Part shown: one piece after another, positions 7,340 through 63,942 of the stretch
Layout: each line of letters starts with the position of its first letter
Numbering within the stretch: the stretch's first letter is position 1
Origin: Octopus vulgaris
Lineage: Eukaryota
NCBI GenBank assembly: GCA_951406725.2
Contig: OX597830.1
Span: 30,690,001-30,754,000, forward strand
Direction: 5' to 3'
Length of the DNA: 64,000 nucleotides
Notes under the pieces: generated by a model
What the model was told of the DNA's origin: nothing
Databases searched by the model: none
What the model saw: the letters and a program-made list of their open reading frames with translations, nothing else
Position numbers and translations under genes: made by a program

Positions 7340-8239
7340 TTGGGTCAACCCGTAAATAATGCATATTTTTTTGTTTTTTTCAATTGCATGAACTAAACAT
7401 CGGAAAGAAACGGGATAAACTACATGCATCAACTTGCTATAAAAGTAGGTAGCAATTTTACCTTGTACTTAATCTTAGTGCAAGTTTTGAAGAGTGCAGT
7501 TCGATTTTAACAATTATTTTTTCAAAACTATAAAGGAAATGACAAAGGAGCATATTCGGCATATTTTGCTTTATCAGTTCAATAAAGGCAACGCAACGGA
7601 AAGTGCGAGGAATATTAATGCAGTATATGGGGATCGAACGATGAGTGCGTCCAGAAATTCCGAGTCGGAATCTAGAGTCTAGAAGACAAGCTTCGTTCTG
7701 GAAGACCTGTAGAGCTGGACGAGGACGTCCTGCAAACCCTGGTGAAACAAAATCCCGCCGTAACTGTTGAGGAACTAGCAGAGAAGCTTGGATTTGGTCA
7801 TTCAACCATTCATCAACACCTGCGTGCCATCGGAAAAGTCAGCAAATTGGGTCAATAGGTTCCTCACAAAATTCCGTGTCTGTATGCTCGGCAACATACA
7901 ACAAGGATGACATTCCAAAGGCTGGAGCCGTTTGAATGGGAAACGACGCTCCACCCATCATATTCGCTAGATTATAATTTATTCCGCAGTCCTCAAAATC
8001 ATTTGGACGGAAAAATACGAGTGCTGTAGACAAGGTCAGAACAGTATTGGAGGAGTATTTTTCATCACGGACACGTGAATTTTGGAAGAAGGGCATTGCA
8101 AGTCAACCAGATAGATGGAAGAGCATTGTAGAAAATGAAGGAGAGTATATTTTAGATTAAAAAACAACTTTGTTTATCGTAATTTTGAAAAATACAAGAA
8201 GTATAAAAAAAACCCCGCATTATTTATGGGATCACCCGA
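7340..8239 (+). mobile_element. Internally deleted mariner DNA transposon
   Basis: Imperfect TIRs TTGGGTCAACCCGTAAATAATGC (7340-7362) and GCATTATTTATGGGATCACCCGA (8217-8239), TA on the left flank, transposase remnants inside. Confidence 0.92.
7539..8160 (+). pseudogene. Mariner transposase pseudogene (frameshifted, central deletion)
   Basis: N-terminus MTKEHIRHILLYQFNKGNATESARNINAVYG, HTH-like ELAEKLGFGHSTIHQHLRAIGKVSKLGQ*VPH (WVPHEL motif decayed), C-terminus FWKKGIASQPDRWKSIVENEGEYILD*. Confidence 0.9.
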
Positions 8240-15841: not shown

Positions 15842-17058
15842 GAGATATATATACACATAAATACATAAATAGCAAGATATACATATATACACATATACAC
15901 ATATTTATATATATATATATATATATACTTACCATACATACATATACAGGCATATGAATATATACATGTATATATACATAAATGTATGCATATATATATA
16001 TATACGTATACACACACACATTTACATATTTATATATGTCTGTAAACATACAATACATACATACGTATTTACATATATACCCACTTATATTTACATATAC
16101 ACGTATACATACATACATAGACAAAAATGGGAGCAGACAGAGAACGACAGGCAGACAGACGGCAGACGGAGATAAATACATGCGTACTCAGACAAAAGCA
16201 TTGATGCATCCACCGATCTCTCCGTGCATACACACTACACACAGCCAATACACACACACACACGTTCGAAGCCCGCGCATACACACACATACACACACAC
16301 ATGCATACGCACATCAATAAGTAATTGGATCGCATCACCCTATAGCTCACTGGCATCCGAATGTATATTTATGACGATTAAACGAAGAAACCTAGTGCCC
16401 TACGAAGAAAATCTAAACATGAACAGTCTGACACTTCACTCTTACACAGCAACCATTTCTCAAGCACAAGTAATGCATATGAAGCAAGATGAAAATGTCA
16501 TACATGATGGATCCCTTAGTAAGGTGAGGGCAAGAAATTAATACCTTTACAAGGTTATAGTAAAGAAAAAAAAATAAGAGCGTGCGTAGTAGTTTCTTAC
16601 CATATAGCACTCGTATCATGTACAACACATTTACCGTGTCTTTGCTGACTCCTATGTATGGCCTTTTGAATTATTCATTACAAGAACACAAGATGGCTGC
16701 AATAGTTCGGAAAGTGTTCTTTTAATATTTACAGCGTTTAATGAAAATATTAAAATCAATGAAGACGTAGACAGATGATATTTAGCTACGTAAGGAATGA
16801 GGCCGAAGTTTTGAAATCAGTCGTGGTTGTATGAGGTTCAGATAACGATACTGAGGCGTTGTTATTTGCTGTGGAGAAGGGAGCTCAGCAGCAACTGCTG
16901 TCTTTCGCAGACATGAAAGCGATAACATTATCAGGATTGCAAATAATTCTGAAAAGAGACGTGAAGTACAAACTGACTCTGACCTCTCTCCGTGCCCAAG
17001 GAAATAACGAAGGATCCTGTCATATGGTCGCTTGACCTTTTAGTAATAACATTCAAAT

Positions 17059-19180: not shown

Positions 19181-19249
19181 CGATTTCCTGTCCACCACGC
19201 GGTCGATTTCCGGTCCACCACGTGGTCTATTTCCTGTTCACCATGTGGT
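19181..19249 (+). repeat. 23-bp minisatellite x3
   Basis: CGATTTCCTGTCCACCACGCGGT / CGATTTCCGGTCCACCACGTGGT / CTATTTCCTGTTCACCATGTGGT. Confidence 0.9.
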
Positions 19250-19288
19250 GTTTTCCAACTAACTGTCGTCACTGATATACGGTTATAC

Positions 19289-19447
19289 CAACATCAAAAC
19301 ACGACACCACGTGACCTTCTTCGACCAATCGCAGCCCACCATACGGTAATAACAATCAGCTTCATTCATTCAAATACAAAATGGCTGAAGATTAGCATCA
19401 CGCTTGAAACTCGGAGTCCCAGCGACTTTGAATCAAAATGTTTTGAT
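19289..19447. mobile_element. Partial copy of the 50024-50267 MITE
   Basis: CAACATCAAAAC...GACCAATCGCAGCCCACC...GCATCACGCTTGAAACTC...TTTTGAT matches the reverse complement of 50024-50182. Confidence 0.75.
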
Positions 19448-19452
19448 CCATA

Positions 19453-19484
<32 letters not shown>

Positions 19485-30619: not shown

Positions 30620-31190
30620 GCTGCCTCATATACAAATGATAGGTGAGACATTTGCTCGTCAGTGGGTTTAAATGACAAAAGCTTGTGCAAATTTTTTTCC
30701 ACTGTTGTAGATTCCTGTGACAATTACTGCAAGATGATTGGTACTACTTTGACTGCATATTCTATGTCAAAATATCTTTCTCCTGGAAGAGCTGCATTGT
30801 CCACGGCTGCGTCAAAAATAACTGTAGCCTTCCTAACTCCTGGGAAATCTATATAACTCATAGATGGGACAGTGCTAGGTATAGGTACTTGTTTGCAAAA
30901 GGACTTGACATAAAGTAAAACAAGGAGGAAAGTGACCTGTCTTTGCTTTAACACAGAGTAGGGGACAGTTAAAAAGAACCTTGGCCGACGTGCAGTTAGT
31001 GTTGGTAAGGACTCCCTAAACCGTCGTTGGGCCGATAGAAATCTATGCCTGTTATTTAAAACTGGGACTGAGGTGAGGAGATAGTCAAATCTCAAATGCT
31101 ACAAGAGGTTGGTGTCCTAGTATACAATTAAAATAAATACCAGTCCATCCAATAGTTCAGCAAATTGTTGTGCAAAGAACGCACATATCT
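30620..31190 (-). pseudogene. Possible decayed LTR-retrotransposon integrase fragment
   Basis: Across shifting frames: F*ITGIDFYRP (cf. F..vGIDF.GP), RFFLTV, AVDNA (cf. vtDNG), SSTNH..SNCH (cf. SSpYHPQSNG). Matched by eye only. Confidence 0.3.
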
Positions 31191-35970: not shown

Positions 35971-36246
35971 CTCCCTAGTCCTCTATTTTCTATCTTTTTT
36001 ATTTCTTTTTTATAGCCAAAGCGGTTTCAGTCAGAATGCACTTGTGAGGATGAAGATGAAGGCAGCTATGGTGTGAAATGTGGTGATGGTTGTCATTTTA
36101 GAGTTGTCATGTTGCTGCTAATGTTATTATGGTTGTGATGACGACGATGGTGGTAGTGGTGGTGGTGGTGGTGATAACGATGACAGTGTTGTTATTGTTT
36201 GTGTGTGTGTGCGTGCGAGTGAATTTGAGTATATATGTATATGTAT

Positions 36247-36305
<59 letters not shown>

Positions 36306-36472
36306 CTGTATGCGTATATATATATTTATATATATATATTAATATATAAGTATACAAGTGTGGATCAATGCATATTTATATATATATATATATATATATA
36401 CACGTATATACGTTTATCTGTGCGTGTATAGATTGATACATAGATAGATAGAAAGATAGCTAATGTACATGT

Positions 36473-36546
<74 letters not shown>

Positions 36547-36557
36547 TATATAGAAGG

Positions 36558-36608
36558 AGCTTCTACAGGACTAGTACTGTTTCATTCAAGAGAAATCTTC
36601 AGGAAGCT
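36558..36608 (-). ncRNA. Type I hammerhead ribozyme motif (inverted copy)
   Basis: Exact reverse complement of 39543-39593. Confidence 0.8.
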
Positions 36609-36983
36609 ATTTAACAAGAATTGTATTAGCATTTATACATTTAGGCAGGTTTAAAGGAGTGGTGGTGGGGGACTTTTTTGGGGGTAGGCATAGCGCAAAA
36701 TATCATACTTGGGGGAGTGGTCAAGGAGTCAGTGGTAAGTTAGATGAAAGAATAGATAAATAAAAAAATAAAATAATAAAATAAAAAAATAAAAAAATAA
36801 AAAAATAAAAAAATAAAAAAATAATAAAATAATAAAATAATAAAAAAATAAAAAATATATATAAAAAATATACATATAAAAAAATATATATATAAAAAAA
36901 GGGGGGATAGAGTTATAGGTAAATAAGGAGATTCTCACTTATACCTATACACATATGTATACGCATCTACACACATATATATA

Positions 36984-37030
<47 letters not shown>

Positions 37031-37326
37031 CACATATACATACATATCTACATACACACATACATACACCCGCCCACATATACAAATTTATACACATGCA
37101 CATGCATATACCTGTCTACACATACACACACGTATATATGCATACACTCACTCCCATGCATGCACGCATACACACATGTATATATATACACACGACCACA
37201 CATACATATATACACAGAAAAATATATATTCATACGCACATACACTCATGCACACACAACACACCTAGTTCCCTATATACACATATTTACACCTATATAT
37301 ACATACACCCACATACACATATGTAC

Positions 37327-37359
<33 letters not shown>

Positions 37360-37382
37360 ATACACACATATATATACATATA

Positions 37383-37451
<69 letters not shown>

Positions 37452-37454
37452 TGC

Positions 37455-37880
37455 GCGTGTGTGTATGTATGCATATATGTATGTATGCATGTATATGTGT
37501 ATGTATATATGTGTGTAAGTGTGTGCATATATGTATATGTAAGTATGTGTGCGTGTATGAGTATGTATGTATGCTTGCACACGTGTATATATGTGTGTGT
37601 GTGTATATATATGGATGCGCGTGCGTGTGTGCACGTGTATGGGTACGCATGTATATGTGTATGTGTGTGTATGTGTATGTATGCATATATGTACGTATGC
37701 ATGTATATGTGTATGTATATATGTGTGTAAGTGTGTGCATATATGTATATGTAAGTATGTGTGCGTGTATGAGTATGTATGTATGCTTGCACACGTGTAT
37801 ATATGTGTGTGTGTGTATATATATGGATGCACGTGCGTGTGTGCACGTGTATGGGTACGCATGTATATGTGTATGTGCGT
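37455..37880 (+). repeat. ~210-bp tandem duplication of TA/TG-rich sequence
   Basis: GTAAGTGTGTGCAT...ATGCTTGCACACGTG...GGGTACGCATG occurs twice. Confidence 0.85.
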
Positions 37881-37938
37881 GTATGCGTATACGTGTATGT
37901 ATGTATGTGTGTGCGTATATTTGTATATGTATGTGTGA

Positions 37939-37973
<35 letters not shown>

Positions 37974-38175
37974 TGGGGGTGTGTGTATGCGTATAAATGC
38001 ATGTAAGTATGGATGTATGGATGTATGTATGTATGTATACGTATGTATGTGTTTGTGTGTATATGTATGTATGTGTGTGTATGTGTGTATATATATATAT
38101 ATGTGTGTATATATGTTTGTGTATGTATATATATGTGTATGTATGTGTGTGTATATATATGTGTGTGTGTGTATG

Positions 38176-38238
<63 letters not shown>

Positions 38239-38642
38239 GTATATATATATAGGTATGTATCTGTATGTAGGAGTATATGTGTGTGTGTGTATGTATATGT
38301 GTATATATATATATATGTATATTTATTGGTGTATATGTATAGACTAGCCTCCTAAAGTGTAGACACGAATCTGTAGGTACGAGTACGTATGTGTATATAC
38401 GTGAACGTATGTAGATGTTTGTATGTATGAATATAACGCGTGCGTACGTGTATGTGTATGAGTGTACGAATGGGTGAATGTACGTGCTAATGAGTGTGCG
38501 TGCGGGAATGAGTACTTGCCTTCTAGTAGACAGACAAATGGACATGCTGCCATAGCCAGGATCCTTAGCTCTAGCGATCAAAGATAACAAAAGTAATAAA
38601 TGAAGATAATAAAATTAAAATTAGGGAATGGGCCTGTATTGG

Positions 38643-38693
<51 letters not shown>

Positions 38694-38798
38694 GTGTATG
38701 TGTAGGTATGTATAGGTACACATGTGTATGTGTGTGTGTATGTATATGTGTATATGTATGTATGTGCACACATGTATATATATGTATGCGTGTATATG

Positions 38799-38830
<32 letters not shown>

Positions 38831-39133
38831 TGTACATATGTGTATGTGGGTGTATGTATATATAGGTGTAAATATGTGTATATAGGGAACTAGGTGTGTT
38901 GTGTGTGCATGAGTGTATGTGCGTATGAATATATATTTTTCTGTGTATATATGTATGTGTGGTCGTGTGTATATATATACATGTGTGTATGCGTGCATGC
39001 ATGGGAGTGAGTGTATGCATATATACGTGTGTGTATGTGTAGACAGGTATATGCATGTGCATGTGTATAAATTTGTATATGTGGGCGGGTGTATGTATGT
39101 GTGTATGTAGATATGTATGTATATGTGTATATA

Positions 39134-39175
<42 letters not shown>

Positions 39176-39542
39176 TATATATATGTGTGTAGATGCGTAT
39201 ACATATGTGTATAGGTATAAGTGAGAATCTCCTTATTTACCTATAACTCTATCCCCCCTTTTTTTATATATATATTTTTTTATATATATATTTTTTATAT
39301 ATATTTTTTTTTTATTTTTTTATTATTTTTTTATTTTTTTATTTTTTTATTTTTTTATTTTTTTTATTTTTTTATTTTTTTATTTTTTTATTTATCTATT
39401 CTTTCATCTAACTTACCACTGACTCCTTGACCACTCCCCCAAGTATGATATTTTGCGCTATGCCTACCCCCAAAAAAGTCCCCCACCACCACTCCTTTAA
39501 ACCTGCCTAAATGTATAAATGCTAATACAATTCTTGTTAAAT

Positions 39543-39593
39543 AGCTTCCTGAAGATTTCTCTTGAATGAAACAGTACTAGTCCTGTAGAAGCT
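39543..39593 (+). ncRNA. Type I hammerhead ribozyme motif
   Basis: Stem I AGCTTC/GAAGCT; CTGAAGA; stem II TTC-TCTT-GAA (T-T at base); GAAA; stem III CAG-TACTAGTC-CTG; GUA triplet, predicted cut after 39587. Confidence 0.8.
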
Positions 39594-40907
39594 CCTTCTA
39601 TATAATAAATTAATTTTACTCTGCTATGTATTGAGTACCTTACTTACTGTGGTTAACCCCGAATCAACCCGGGACCTACATATATATATATATATATATA
39701 CCCACACATAGCGTTTATAACTCGACGCTCGTTCAAACGTGATCTCAATCGATTTATGATGATTCTTCAATGCATTTCCTCTAGCAATTGATTGATATTG
39801 CTCTAAGCTCTATAGATTGCACCGGATGCCGTACTGCACCATCCCTATCGGCATCAACGCCACCTGAAGCTCTAACACTACACAACCACTGTCGTCATCA
39901 TCATCATCATCACATGATCTTCATCATTGTAAGCTGGAAGACACCTCACTATCAGTGTCAGTAGGACCTCCATCTGTACTCTGTCACGGTCGTCATCCCA
40001 ACCGATTGCTCGGGTAACATAGTCCTCATCGTCATCATCATCATCATCGTCATCATTATCGTCATCATCATCATCGTCAATATCATCGTCGTCGTCATCA
40101 TCATCATCATCATCATTGCCATCTTCCTCATCACCAGCACTAGCAGCACAAATATTTCACGACCATCATCAGAACTGGTATCATCGCCAGCATCACCCCA
40201 ATTAAAACCAGGACACCATCATCACCACCACCACCACTCCCCATAATTAATGCCATCATCACCACCATCACAATAATACCTACTACCATCTTATATAAGC
40301 TTGACCACTATTAGCTTCAGTAGCGTGGACATACACAGAAGACTCAGGGATATGATTGTCGGTATGCTTTCACAGAATTCTTGGCATTATATAGAAGGAA
40401 ATCCGGACCAACCAGTCAATCTTCGAACTATTTTATGCGTTGATCGAGAAGATAAAAACACTCGTACAAACAACAAGATGAAGTAAATATGCTTTGGATT
40501 GGGTCTTTGCAAATACAACACGTTTGGAGAGAACTGAAGGTAAAAAGGAGACTATTATAACCATGGAAAGACTTGGCTCCATAATAATGGTTTCGAATTT
40601 TGTCACAAGGCCAGCAACTTCGGGAGAGGAGGTAAGTCGATTACATCGATCCCAATGTTCAAGTGGTACTTATTTTATAGAACTCCGAAAGGATGAAAGG
40701 CAAAGTCGACCTCGGCAGAATTTGAACACGGTGCGTAATGTAGGAAGAAATGCCGCTAAGAATTTTGTCCGGCGTGTTAACGATTCTGCCAGCTCGTCGC
40801 CTTTAAAAGACTCGTCTACAAAAAAGCAGAAAGCTGCATATACCATCTTAACCACTACCACAAACCATCATTGTAATTTGGGTCTATGATATTAAAACGT
40901 GACCTAA

Positions 40908-41330
40908 GACGGTGAGCTGGCAGAATCGTTAGCACGCTGGACGAAATGCTTAGCGGTATATCGCCCGTCGCTACGTTCTGAGTTCAAATCCCGCCGTGTT
41001 CGACTTTGCCTTTCATCATTTCGGTGTCGATGAAATAAGTACCAGCTACGCACTGGGGTCGATGAAATCGACTATCTCCCTCCCCCAAATTTCAGGCTTT
41101 GTTCCTATAATAGAAAAGACAATCGTTAGCATGCCGGACTAAATGCTTAGTGGCATTTGGTCGTCCATTTTGTCGGTATTTTGTCGTTCACCCTCTGAGA
41201 TTAAATTCTGTCGAGTCGACTTTGCTTTTCATCCTTTCGGAGTCGATAAAATAACTCTCAGTTGGATACCGGAGGTCGAAGTAGTCGATTTAATCACTTC
41301 CTCGAATTTTCTATCCTTGTACCAATAATA
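40908..41330 (+). mobile_element. Two tandem SINE family B copies
   Basis: GACGGTGAGCTGGCAGAATCGTTAGCA head; second copy from ~41120. Confidence 0.82.
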
Positions 41331-50000: not shown

Positions 50001-50023
50001 TGTATGTATGTATGTATGTATGT

Positions 50024-50267
50024 ATCAAAACAGTTCTATTCTAATTCGTTGGTATTCTTGAGTTTCAAGCGTGATGCTAGTCATCAGTCATATTGAAATT
50101 GAATGACAGAAGTTGATTGCTATTACCGTAAGGTGGGCTGCGATTGGTCGAGAAAGGTCACGCGATGTCTTGGTTTGATGTTGTCATTCAAATTCAAAAT
50201 GGCTGATGACTGGCATCACGCTTCAAAACTCAAGAGTATCAACGAATTTGAACCAAACTATTTTGAT
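50024..50267. mobile_element. Palindromic MITE with ~80-bp inverted arms
   Basis: ATCAAAACAGTT...AACTATTTTGAT; arms ~50024-50105 and ~50182-50267; a second partial copy lies at 19289-19447 in the opposite orientation. Confidence 0.75.
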
Positions 50268-50327
50268 GCATACTTGTAACTCATAATAAATTTGCTGGGT
50301 GCCCTTCTTTCGTTAGTTCCCTCACTC

Positions 50328-50392
<65 letters not shown>

Positions 50393-50418: not shown

Positions 50419-50488
50419 GCCGGATAACTGAAGAGATGGTGGTGTGGGTTTCCACCTCTGCATCCGAAACACAGAGTTTTATCTTGGC
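50419..50488 (+). ncRNA. Type I hammerhead motif
   Basis: GATAA-CTGAAGA-GATG..GGTG/CACC..CATC-C-GAAAC-ACAGA-GTT-TTATC; stem I extends with GCC/GGC. Confidence 0.68.
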
Positions 50489-61134: not shown

Positions 61135-61319
61135 CGTTGGCGATTTTTTTCCTCCGTCTTCCTTTCTCTGGATCTTTCCTTTTCCTATGTTTCTGACGAA
61201 GAGCTCCGCTCGAAACGTTAAACCCTCCTTCTTCCCTTCCTTCCAGAGCGTCCAATAATACTATATTTGTTCCACGTCCTCGCGTTGTTGTGTTTTCTCT
61301 TTGTTCATGTTTGGATTAT

Positions 61320-62678: not shown

Positions 62679-63942
62679 CAGAGGTTGGAGAAAATAATGG
62701 AAGCACCTTCAAATTTCAAACATATTTTTAGTTTAATATGGAGTAGGACCGACTTTGGCAGTAATTACAGCTTTAATTCTACTAGCTATGGACTCGTACA
62801 AAGTTTGAATTGTTTCCAAAGGAATTTTTGTCCACTTTTCAGCTAAAAGAGTTTCCAGTTTTTGTAGTGATGATGGTGGAGTATATCGACTCCTTACTTT
62901 TTTTCTAAAATGCACGATAAATGTTCAATAGTATTGAGGTCTGGGGACTGTGGTGACCAGATAAGATGTTCATCTTCACTACAATATATACCACGTGCCA
63001 TTCAGTAATACCTTTAGCCGTGTGAATTGGTGTAATATCATCCTAAAAGATTGTGTTTCCCTCCGGAAACAGTTCCGCAACAATAGGATGAAATGGATAA
63101 GATAAAATGCTTAAATAGTCTTGACTATTAATTCTGCCATGAAGGGAAACCACTGGGTCGGCAGATTTCCAAAATATAGCACCTTCACCCCACCCCAGAT
63201 CATTACAGATCCTCCTCCATGTTTAACAGTTCGAAGAAGGTAGTCTAGATCAAATGCTTCTTTTGGCTGTCTCCACACGTATACTCATCCGGTGGTCGGA
63301 AATAAGGTAAAAGATGACTCATCTGAGAAAATAGCATTCTTCCACTGCTCTATGAACCAATTCTGTAGGTTTTTACTCCACTCTAAACGCTTTGCAACGT
63401 TTGGTTTTGAAAGAAGTGGTTTTCTGATTGCAGCCCTCCCGAGAAATCAAGCTTTGTGCAGCTCCTGGCGAACTGTTTTTGTGGAAACTGGGTTCTCGAG
63501 GTGGTCATTAAGTTCTGCACTAATTCTGGGATCTGTACTTTTGTGATCCTTTCTAACAATTTGAAAGTTTTGGGTTTCTTCTGGAGTTTTGTTTCGACAG
63601 GGAGGTTCTTCCCTCTTTCTCAAAGGCTGTCATTACTTTAGAGACAGTACTTCTTGATACACCAAACATTTGGGTTGCTTTCATTGCGCTAGCGCTTGCC
63701 ATACAAGCGCCAACAATTGAACCTCTTTGAAAGTCAGATAGATCTGTCATTTTAATGAATTTGAATTACCTTTTTCTGATGATATCTGAAAAGAAACAGC
63801 AATTTTAACAAAACATATTAAGCAACACTAATAATAAATAAAAAAACATAAAAATAAACAAGCTTTTTACGGTTTTATAGATATTTCAAAATTATGATGC
63901 TATAATAATGCTAGGTGTTCCCATTATTTTGTCCAACCCCTG
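62679..63942 (-). mobile_element. Tc1-like DNA transposon, near full length, decayed
   Basis: TIRs CAGAGGTTGGAGAAAATAATGGAAGCACC / GGTGTTCCCATTATTTTGTCCAACCCCTG, TA on both flanks. Confidence 0.93.
62733..63750 (-). pseudogene. Tc1 transposase pseudogene
   Basis: Begins MTDLSDFQRGSIVGA...FGVSRSTVSKV (paired-like HTH) and ends ...IPLETIQTLYESIASRIKAVITAKVGPTPY*; several stops and frameshifts. Confidence 0.9.

Follow-up and report, generated by a model that had tools for sequence, protein, structure and literature searches.

The window analysed here, a stretch of 64 kb taken at its whole length, contains a fold-back of about 3 kb that lies between two runs of TA repeats. Its two inverted arms each carry a complete type I hammerhead motif facing outwards. 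The features of the locus, by position in the window, are the following.

36493-36542 (no strand): left (TA)25 run, presumed target microsatellite, sharing 2 bases with the end of the left arm
36541-37359 (minus): left arm, corresponding to the 3' end of the element in inverted orientation, truncated on its 5' side and tail-less
36558-36608 (minus): left type I hammerhead motif, of the same sequence as the right one
37360-37449 (no strand): head-to-head junction zone, containing (TA)33 at 37384-37449, where polarity flips from CA-rich to TG-rich
37450-38796 (plus): spacer, the probable 5' continuation of the longer right copy, judged by its sharing the strand polarity of the right arm
38797-39610 (plus): right arm, the element's 3' end as far as the proximal end of the family
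39543-39593 (plus): right type I hammerhead motif, of Hydra-clade-like shape, with a predicted cut after A39587
39584-39602 (plus): 8-bp hairpin that, by prediction, covers the cleavage triplet together with the 3' strand of stem I
39611-39680 (plus): one-sided tail of 70 nt, on the right arm only
39680-39699 (no strand): right (TA)10 run, presumed target microsatellite

Alignment of the left arm on the minus strand with the right arm on the plus strand gave 805 identical bases out of 810 aligned, with 5 mismatches and 13 gap columns distributed in 5 gaps. This bears out a previous interpretation made from the letters alone (the sequence-only reading), which had described near-identical inverted arms of about 820 bp. 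The outermost 233 bp of both arms are identical, and the differences are confined to simple-repeat tracts; a divergence this close to zero points to a recent event. The termini are unequal: the left arm abuts (TA)25 directly, while the right end extends 70 nt beyond the inverted repeat, so that the right arm is followed by the tail and then by (TA)10. The tail of about 70 nt on the right arm only and the position between TA repeats had both been recognized correctly. Since both ends of the element are embedded in (TA)n, a target-site duplication is not readable there. There are 12 TA runs of at least 16 bp within 36100-39800, and the 64-kb window as a whole is animal DNA dense in microsatellites, with a repeat landscape that suggests an octopus. 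Strand polarity flips only once across the element, at 37380-37450. Because this flip falls at (TA)33 and the spacer shares the polarity of the right arm, we place the junction between the two copies at 37384-37449.

The spacer consists of TG-rich simple repeats, with a 212-bp tandem duplication at 37437-37860 (96%) and a non-repetitive island at 38323-38645. No coding frame was found in the element: the frames that cross it are all repeat-derived, and the three that were scanned gave no Pfam match, in agreement with the earlier statement that the body has no ORF. In particular, no ORF for a reverse transcriptase or a GIY-YIG endonuclease lies within it. In the search for a host gene, Pfam scans of 98 of 144 candidate and element frames yielded only Tc1/mariner relics and two sub-threshold matches, and no homologue was found for two exon-like frames. 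Scans of viral and bacterial contigs returned no autonomous partner. A splice acceptor at 39542-39544, considered by analogy with Drosophila Penelope, was dropped, since at 39523 the letter resembling a branch point is the rarer allele.

Both hammerheads possess a 6-bp stem I, the CUGAAGA segment, a U.U pair followed by stem II of 3 bp and its 4-nt loop, the GAAA segment, a 4-bp stem III with an 8-nt loop and a GUA site. The CUGANGA/GAAA/UH core and the three stems are hence all present, as the sequence-only reading had it. The G10.1-C11.1 pair that closes stem II is absent, and a U.U pair fixed in the family stands in its place. A descriptor fitted after the motif had been seen found two matches on both strands of the 64 kb, which are exactly the two arm hammerheads. 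Among 100 local dinucleotide shuffles the strict descriptor gave 0 matches and two looser settings gave 3 and 4. Rfam reported nothing at gathering score across the whole window, and a search of 39300-39900 relaxed to E≤10 returned no hammerhead; tandem-repeat analysis of the window found no tandem unit containing the motif. The distances from the motif to the element's two 3' ends are 87 and 157 nt. The same layout recurs at 50018-50328 of the window in a second hammerhead family, unrelated and older, with a small fold-back at 50018-50273 (78 of 91 positions identical) and a one-sided 55-nt tail before (TA)n; a solo, tail-less copy of it lies at 19289-19455.

To look for family members we compared positions 39390-40020 with public sequencing runs, obtaining 20 matching runs that bear 4 organism labels and come from 9 studies, and aligned the contigs of four of them (X1, X2, X11 and X13) on 39400-40020. 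All four contain members of the family, which the sequence-only reading had proposed to look for. Depth summed over contigs was 2e4 to 8e4 times greater at the hammerhead than at the single-copy flank (X1, X2, X11). Such a sum is not a copy number, but division by the 31-fold maximum overlap leaves about 700-2600, which suggests a floor for the family once overlap is allowed for. This is a high-copy family with two types of 3' end. At the proximal end, contigs depart from the window at 39610-39614 into (AT)n, matching the end of the left arm (19 and 10 contigs in X1, 15 in X2, 1 and 2 in X11). At the distal end, the tail is covered in all four runs to about 39668, where the stretch excluded as repeat (39669-39713) begins, at 0.40-0.61 of the depth found on the 3' side of the hammerhead. 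Only 16-17% of hammerhead depth extends into the upstream sequence present here (X2, X11), which indicates that shorter copies, or elements with a different body, carry the 3' module as well. A rare form is seen in one X1 contig (depth 30.7) that jumps from 39604 to 39543.

Within the 51-nt motif, variants reaching 5% were found only at N7 (39553), in loop II (39560, 39561) and in loop III (39576), whereas the core, the stems and the U.U pair showed none in the family contigs. The earlier description of a young element bearing a ribozyme motif is hence sustained by the near-identity of the arms and by a motif that is family-wide. The near-palindromic stem III that it had pointed out does exist in the window's copy, but it is not a property of the family: at 39576 another letter accounts for 72-95% of depth in three runs, which leaves 4 of the 6 nt of the central palindrome and lowers the predicted stability of the stem III dimer (-12.8 instead of -15.2 kcal/mol). 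Near-palindromy of stem III is a trait of the window's subfamily. Pairing of the two stems III as a dimer within one RNA fails, since the motifs lie on opposite strands and a dimer needs two separate RNAs. No description of the family was found in the open papers searched; it may already be catalogued in Repbase or Dfam, in a subscription paper or in the supplement of PMC13282606. A metagenome pattern scan produced 10 loci, none of which had stem I together with stem III, or similarity to the window.

Our preferred explanation, which we hold as probable, is that the locus represents a single insertion by a young element without coding capacity, derived from a Hydra-like Penelope-like retroelement (PLE), made of two 5'-truncated copies with their 3' ends outward. 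The hammerheads would thus point outward because the 3' ends of both copies do. Beside the observed anatomy, abundance, two 3' end types and motif conservation, we infer retrotransposition in a single event, the existence of a partner, membership of the Hydra clade and cleavage by the hammerhead. We propose that an autonomous partner supplied its reverse transcriptase-endonuclease in trans and that this enzyme nicked both strands of a (TA)n target. Two cDNAs would then be primed from internal sites of the RNA, one at about 39610 (proximal) and the other at about 39680 (distal), and would break off prematurely, at lengths of about 0.82 kb and 2.2 kb. Their truncated ends would be joined, likely via the self-complementary (TA)33 at 37384-37449. 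The hammerhead would travel as cargo of the 3' terminal repeat. Its cleavage would be weak, confined to a brief period during transcription or to dimers formed by separate RNAs. The one-sided tail and the two end types fit both the PLE tails described by Craig et al. 2021 (PMC8557442) and the two-start model of Poseidon (PMC11167929). In vitro, the Poseidon protein nicks and extends both strands of AT-rich DNA, and two internal reverse-transcription starts on the RNA bound the tail (Frangieh et al. 2024, PMC11167929).

The same mechanism could have acted on 5'-truncated copies of an autonomous PLE whose 3' untranslated region, filled with microsatellites, exceeds 2.2 kb. PLE copies are reported to be mostly 5'-truncated (PMC8557442), and this locus does not show the element's true 5' end, both of which would accommodate such an origin. 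However, published elements of the Hydra clade measure under about 3 kb in total, ORF included (PMC8557442), and the small share of hammerhead depth that continues upstream also speaks against it. We thus consider this alternative rather unlikely. The lack of an ORF over a length as great as that of whole Hydra elements favours a non-autonomous family, and non-autonomous is what the family likely is.

RNA folding was also predicted. For the 51-mer alone, mean pair probability was 0.94 in stem I and 0.72 in stem III, but about 0.1 in stem II, and the fold energy of the motif was no better than that of shuffles (z -0.17). With upstream context, the 8-bp hairpin at 39584-39602 is predicted to form with a probability of 0.79-0.96 once 39594-39602 has been transcribed. 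Shuffling the downstream 20 nt 2000 times equalled it in only 13 cases, a comparison made post hoc, and no variant reaching 5% occurs at 39577-39602 in the family contigs. In the three copies of the older hammerhead family, 391, 2000 and 1555 of 2000 shuffles matched the hairpin signal, which means that a masking hairpin is not general there. The tail also contains a small stem-loop with an A/C-rich loop (39657-39672), whose fold does not go beyond shuffles (z -1.1). It is conceivable, though decidedly unlikely, that the family is a currently transcribed non-coding parasite of Hydra-clade PLEs with thousands of copies. Its 8-bp hairpin would be a conserved off-switch that covers the cut site immediately upon synthesis and shields the RNA template. 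It would also mark where reverse transcription starts proximally, about 8 nt further downstream, the distal start being marked by the stem-loop of the tail. If so, fold-back insertions would seed long double-stranded RNA genome-wide for editing or silencing.

As regards transcription, no matching run is on record as RNA; X12-X15 and X17-X20 are guessed RNA runs, and one of these, X13, carries the same organism label as X2. At 39493, 39523 and 39541 the window's letters make up 96-97% of depth in X13, while in X2 the alternative letter makes up 90-93%. Genomic carry-over should mirror X2, and X13 does not. Transcription of the young subfamily is hinted at by this comparison, which involves one run with a guessed label and contigs that drop rare variants. 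An A>G change at 39540 in X13 (5%) was considered as RNA editing and rejected, as it also occurs in X11.

Two separate insertions in opposite orientation, 1.4 kb apart, from one young subfamily (or one of them converted to the sequence of the other), enclosing a piece of host DNA, would produce a similar arrangement. An abundant family that inserts into TA runs finds in this region the dozen counted above, and the spacer is known from this locus alone. On the other hand, both arms carry the same minority letters at 39493, 39523, 39541 and 39576, while only 18-23% of the contigs aligned in the three large runs are at least 99% alike. Moreover, one arm is tailed and the other is not, and the polarity of the spacer is that of the right arm. 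Independent insertions are therefore improbable.

The sequence-only reading had proposed that a transcript of either strand would be a long double-stranded RNA with a ribozyme near its 3' end, and we considered a fold-back capped in this way and trimmed at the 3' end by an active hammerhead. Conservation of core and stems throughout the family is compatible with this proposal, as is the enrichment of the window's subfamily in X13. The T-T at the base of stem II, which had been put forward as a reason why the motif might not cleave, mostly falls as an objection: it is the family state, it is found in 14 of 25 Hydra families and it occurs in a cleaving axolotl hammerhead. The latter, HHR_Amex2, has the same U.U; its monomer reached 22% cleavage in 1 h, and its dimer cleaved further (PMC7229834). 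Yet in the predicted fold of the 3140-nt RNA, the left arm takes up 776 of the 821 bases of the right arm in pairs, and each of the 11 hammerhead positions sampled is bound to its antisense counterpart. The predicted energy of the sense-antisense duplex is -92.9 kcal/mol, against -8.5 kcal/mol for the motif alone. The predicted masking hairpin acts in the same direction. Besides, for the one PLE tested, Poseidon, insertion in vitro did not need hammerhead cleavage and no RNA ends were seen at the hammerhead cut site (PMC11167929). In an RNA spanning both arms the hammerhead is thus predicted to be buried in duplex and inactive. The first half of the proposal holds as a prediction, in that the fold-back, if transcribed, would give long double-stranded RNA, but it would do so without a working ribozyme as its cap, and the complete proposal is very improbable.

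Finally, an assembly or fold-back read artefact, for which near-identical arms in repeat-rich DNA and the trouble that inverted PLE structures cause to assemblies (PMC8557442) could be invoked, is scarcely credible, given that the 1.44-kb spacer is unique, that flanks differ on each side and repeat lengths between arms, and that the left-arm end recurs as the exact family end in three separately labelled runs (X1, X2 and X11), of which at most one can be the source of the window, so that this objection, also foreseen, mostly falls.

A single PLE-type insertion remains our preferred reading, and it can be compared with several known systems. The element differs from a DNA foldback element or MITE in having no equal terminal inverted repeats and in having ends that vary as in retrotransposition. 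Like animal non-LTR retrozymes (PMC7229834; bioRxiv 10.64898/2026.07.22.740005), which have been proposed as PLE parasites in the same two sources, it is non-coding and high-copy and carries a type I hammerhead. Retrozymes, however, are short direct tandem repeats that give circular RNA, while the element is an inverted pair of copies of at least 0.8 kb and 2.2 kb. With the minimal hammerheads of PLEs (Cervera and De la Pena 2014, PMC4209133) it shares a type I motif in a terminal repeat and a palindromic stem III. In contrast with them, it lacks G10.1-C11.1, and the 4 bp of its stem III would allow this stem to form within a single molecule. The same work describes pairs of Schistosoma hammerheads on opposite strands 100-700 bp apart, compared with a spacing of 2.9 kb here. 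Hammerhead dimer cleavage has been treated by Lunse et al. (PMC5785218), as summarized in PMC6765202.

Poseidon_Ac of Anolis resembles the element in its optional tail, its AT-rich target, a hammerhead upstream of the tail and a distal A/C-rich stem-loop. It differs in that its hammerhead and tail overlap the start of the ORF, whereas no frame opens there in the element. The tail of the element is also longer, with 70 nt against the 30-40 bp given in the cited PLE papers, PMC8557442 describing it at one end only.

The closest resemblance is to the Hydra clade of C-terminal EN+ PLEs, for which we counted features by eye in the 25 families of File S2 of PMC8557442. T...T at the base of stem II is present in 14 of the 25, and the four stem III pairs of the element recur in 4. 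(TA)n is given as the target of 24 (File S1). Shared with members of the clade are the U.U at the base of stem II, a 4-bp stem III and a motif located about 90-200 nt from the 3' end. The element departs from them in having no ORF in which the protein marks of the clade (RWK, DKT, a CxCX5C linker and no CCHH) could be read, a body of microsatellites and a loop III of 8 nt, as compared with 1-3 nt in all 25 families, so that the fit of its hammerhead shape to the clade is mixed. The motif-to-3'-end distance lies at 87-130 nt in 12 families, at 152-210 nt in 11 and at 425 nt in 1 (24 families, leaving aside one with the motif at its 5' end). In our own reading of these data, the two main spacing groups may correspond to the two ends of the element. 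The hammerhead of Hydra-1_Obim, a published Octopus member, differs in sequence from that of the element, and a 15-letter piece of the motif had 0 matches in the supplement of PMC8557442, where broken lines and shortened runs make this a weak comparison.

Regarding overall layout, Craig et al. describe PLE insertions that carry an inverted 5'-truncated copy at their 5' end (PMC8557442). Penelope-13_HM is 3045 bp long, with an inverted copy at nt 1-966, a (TA)n target, an ORF and hammerheads at 102 (antisense) and 2944 (sense). Like this and other Hydra-clade elements, the one described here measures about 3 kb, has an inverted truncated copy of 0.8-1 kb and outer hammerheads on opposite strands, and sits in (TA)n. 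The identification of a PLE-type insertion with an inverted partial copy made in the sequence-only reading thus matches a published layout. The architecture itself has already been described (Fig. 2 legend of Craig et al. 2021, for Penelope-13_HM; Cervera and De la Pena 2014) and is ordinary PLE output. The role of the hammerhead in endonuclease-bearing PLEs is called unclear in PMC8557442, and the present family offers a test case for it, being young and abundant, with a hammerhead that is fixed, sharply defined 3' ends of two types and a hairpin predicted to mask the cut site.

Contigs from two public sequencing runs, X1 and X13 (the latter guessed to be RNA), aligned to 39400-40020, include some that turn around or jump at the plus-strand hammerhead (39543-39593) of the probable head-to-head Penelope-like (PLE) insertion. 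Nineteen contigs in X1 and one in X13, with loose ends before 39543, reverse at 39539-39546, where the palindromic stem I starts, and continue into the reverse complement of the hammerhead. They are likely to be either tiny fold-back copies pivoting at the ribozyme or library hairpins. In X1, a single contig with a depth of 30.7 reaches 39604 and then resumes at 39543, possibly reflecting a direct tandem of the hammerhead that could form a dimer in cis.

Repeats lie within the spacer between the arms of the insertion and just downstream of it:
37437-37860, 212-bp tandem duplication (96%), within the spacer
40605-41320, common short interspersed repeat present as inverted copies (~70% identical), on the downstream side

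A small fold-back at 50018-50328 is older than this insertion and derives from a different Hydra-like hammerhead family; its tail (~55 nt) is found on one side only and is followed by (TA)n. The same older family also has a solo copy at 19289-19455, which lacks a tail and has (TA)n at its end.
50018-50108 and 50182-50273, fold-back arms (identity 78/91)
50087 (-) and 50203 (+), fold-back hammerhead cores
19385 (+), hammerhead core of the solo copy
19183-19256, 23-bp tandem repeat upstream of the solo copy

Three further hammerhead-like motifs were picked out by eye, and none matched the descriptor fitted to the motif of the main insertion; that at 61189-61223 looks like the minimal PLE type.
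50423-50484 (+), hammerhead-like motif
61189-61223 (+), hammerhead-like motif
11854 (-), hammerhead-like motif

Pfam identified Tc1/mariner relics (HTH_48, E 1e-11; HTH_Tnp_Tc3_2 below cut-off), and a homologue search for two exon-like frames found none.
7491-8157, relic of a Tc1/mariner transposase
63046-63629, relic of a Tc1/mariner transposase
30727-30915 (-), exon-like frame
16835-17032 (+), exon-like frame

In File S2 of PMC8557442, a hairpin over the cut site formed with the downstream flank also appears possible, by eye, in 3 of 25 Hydra-clade rows, namely Penelope-1_NV, Penelope-1_SK and Hydra-2_aJap.
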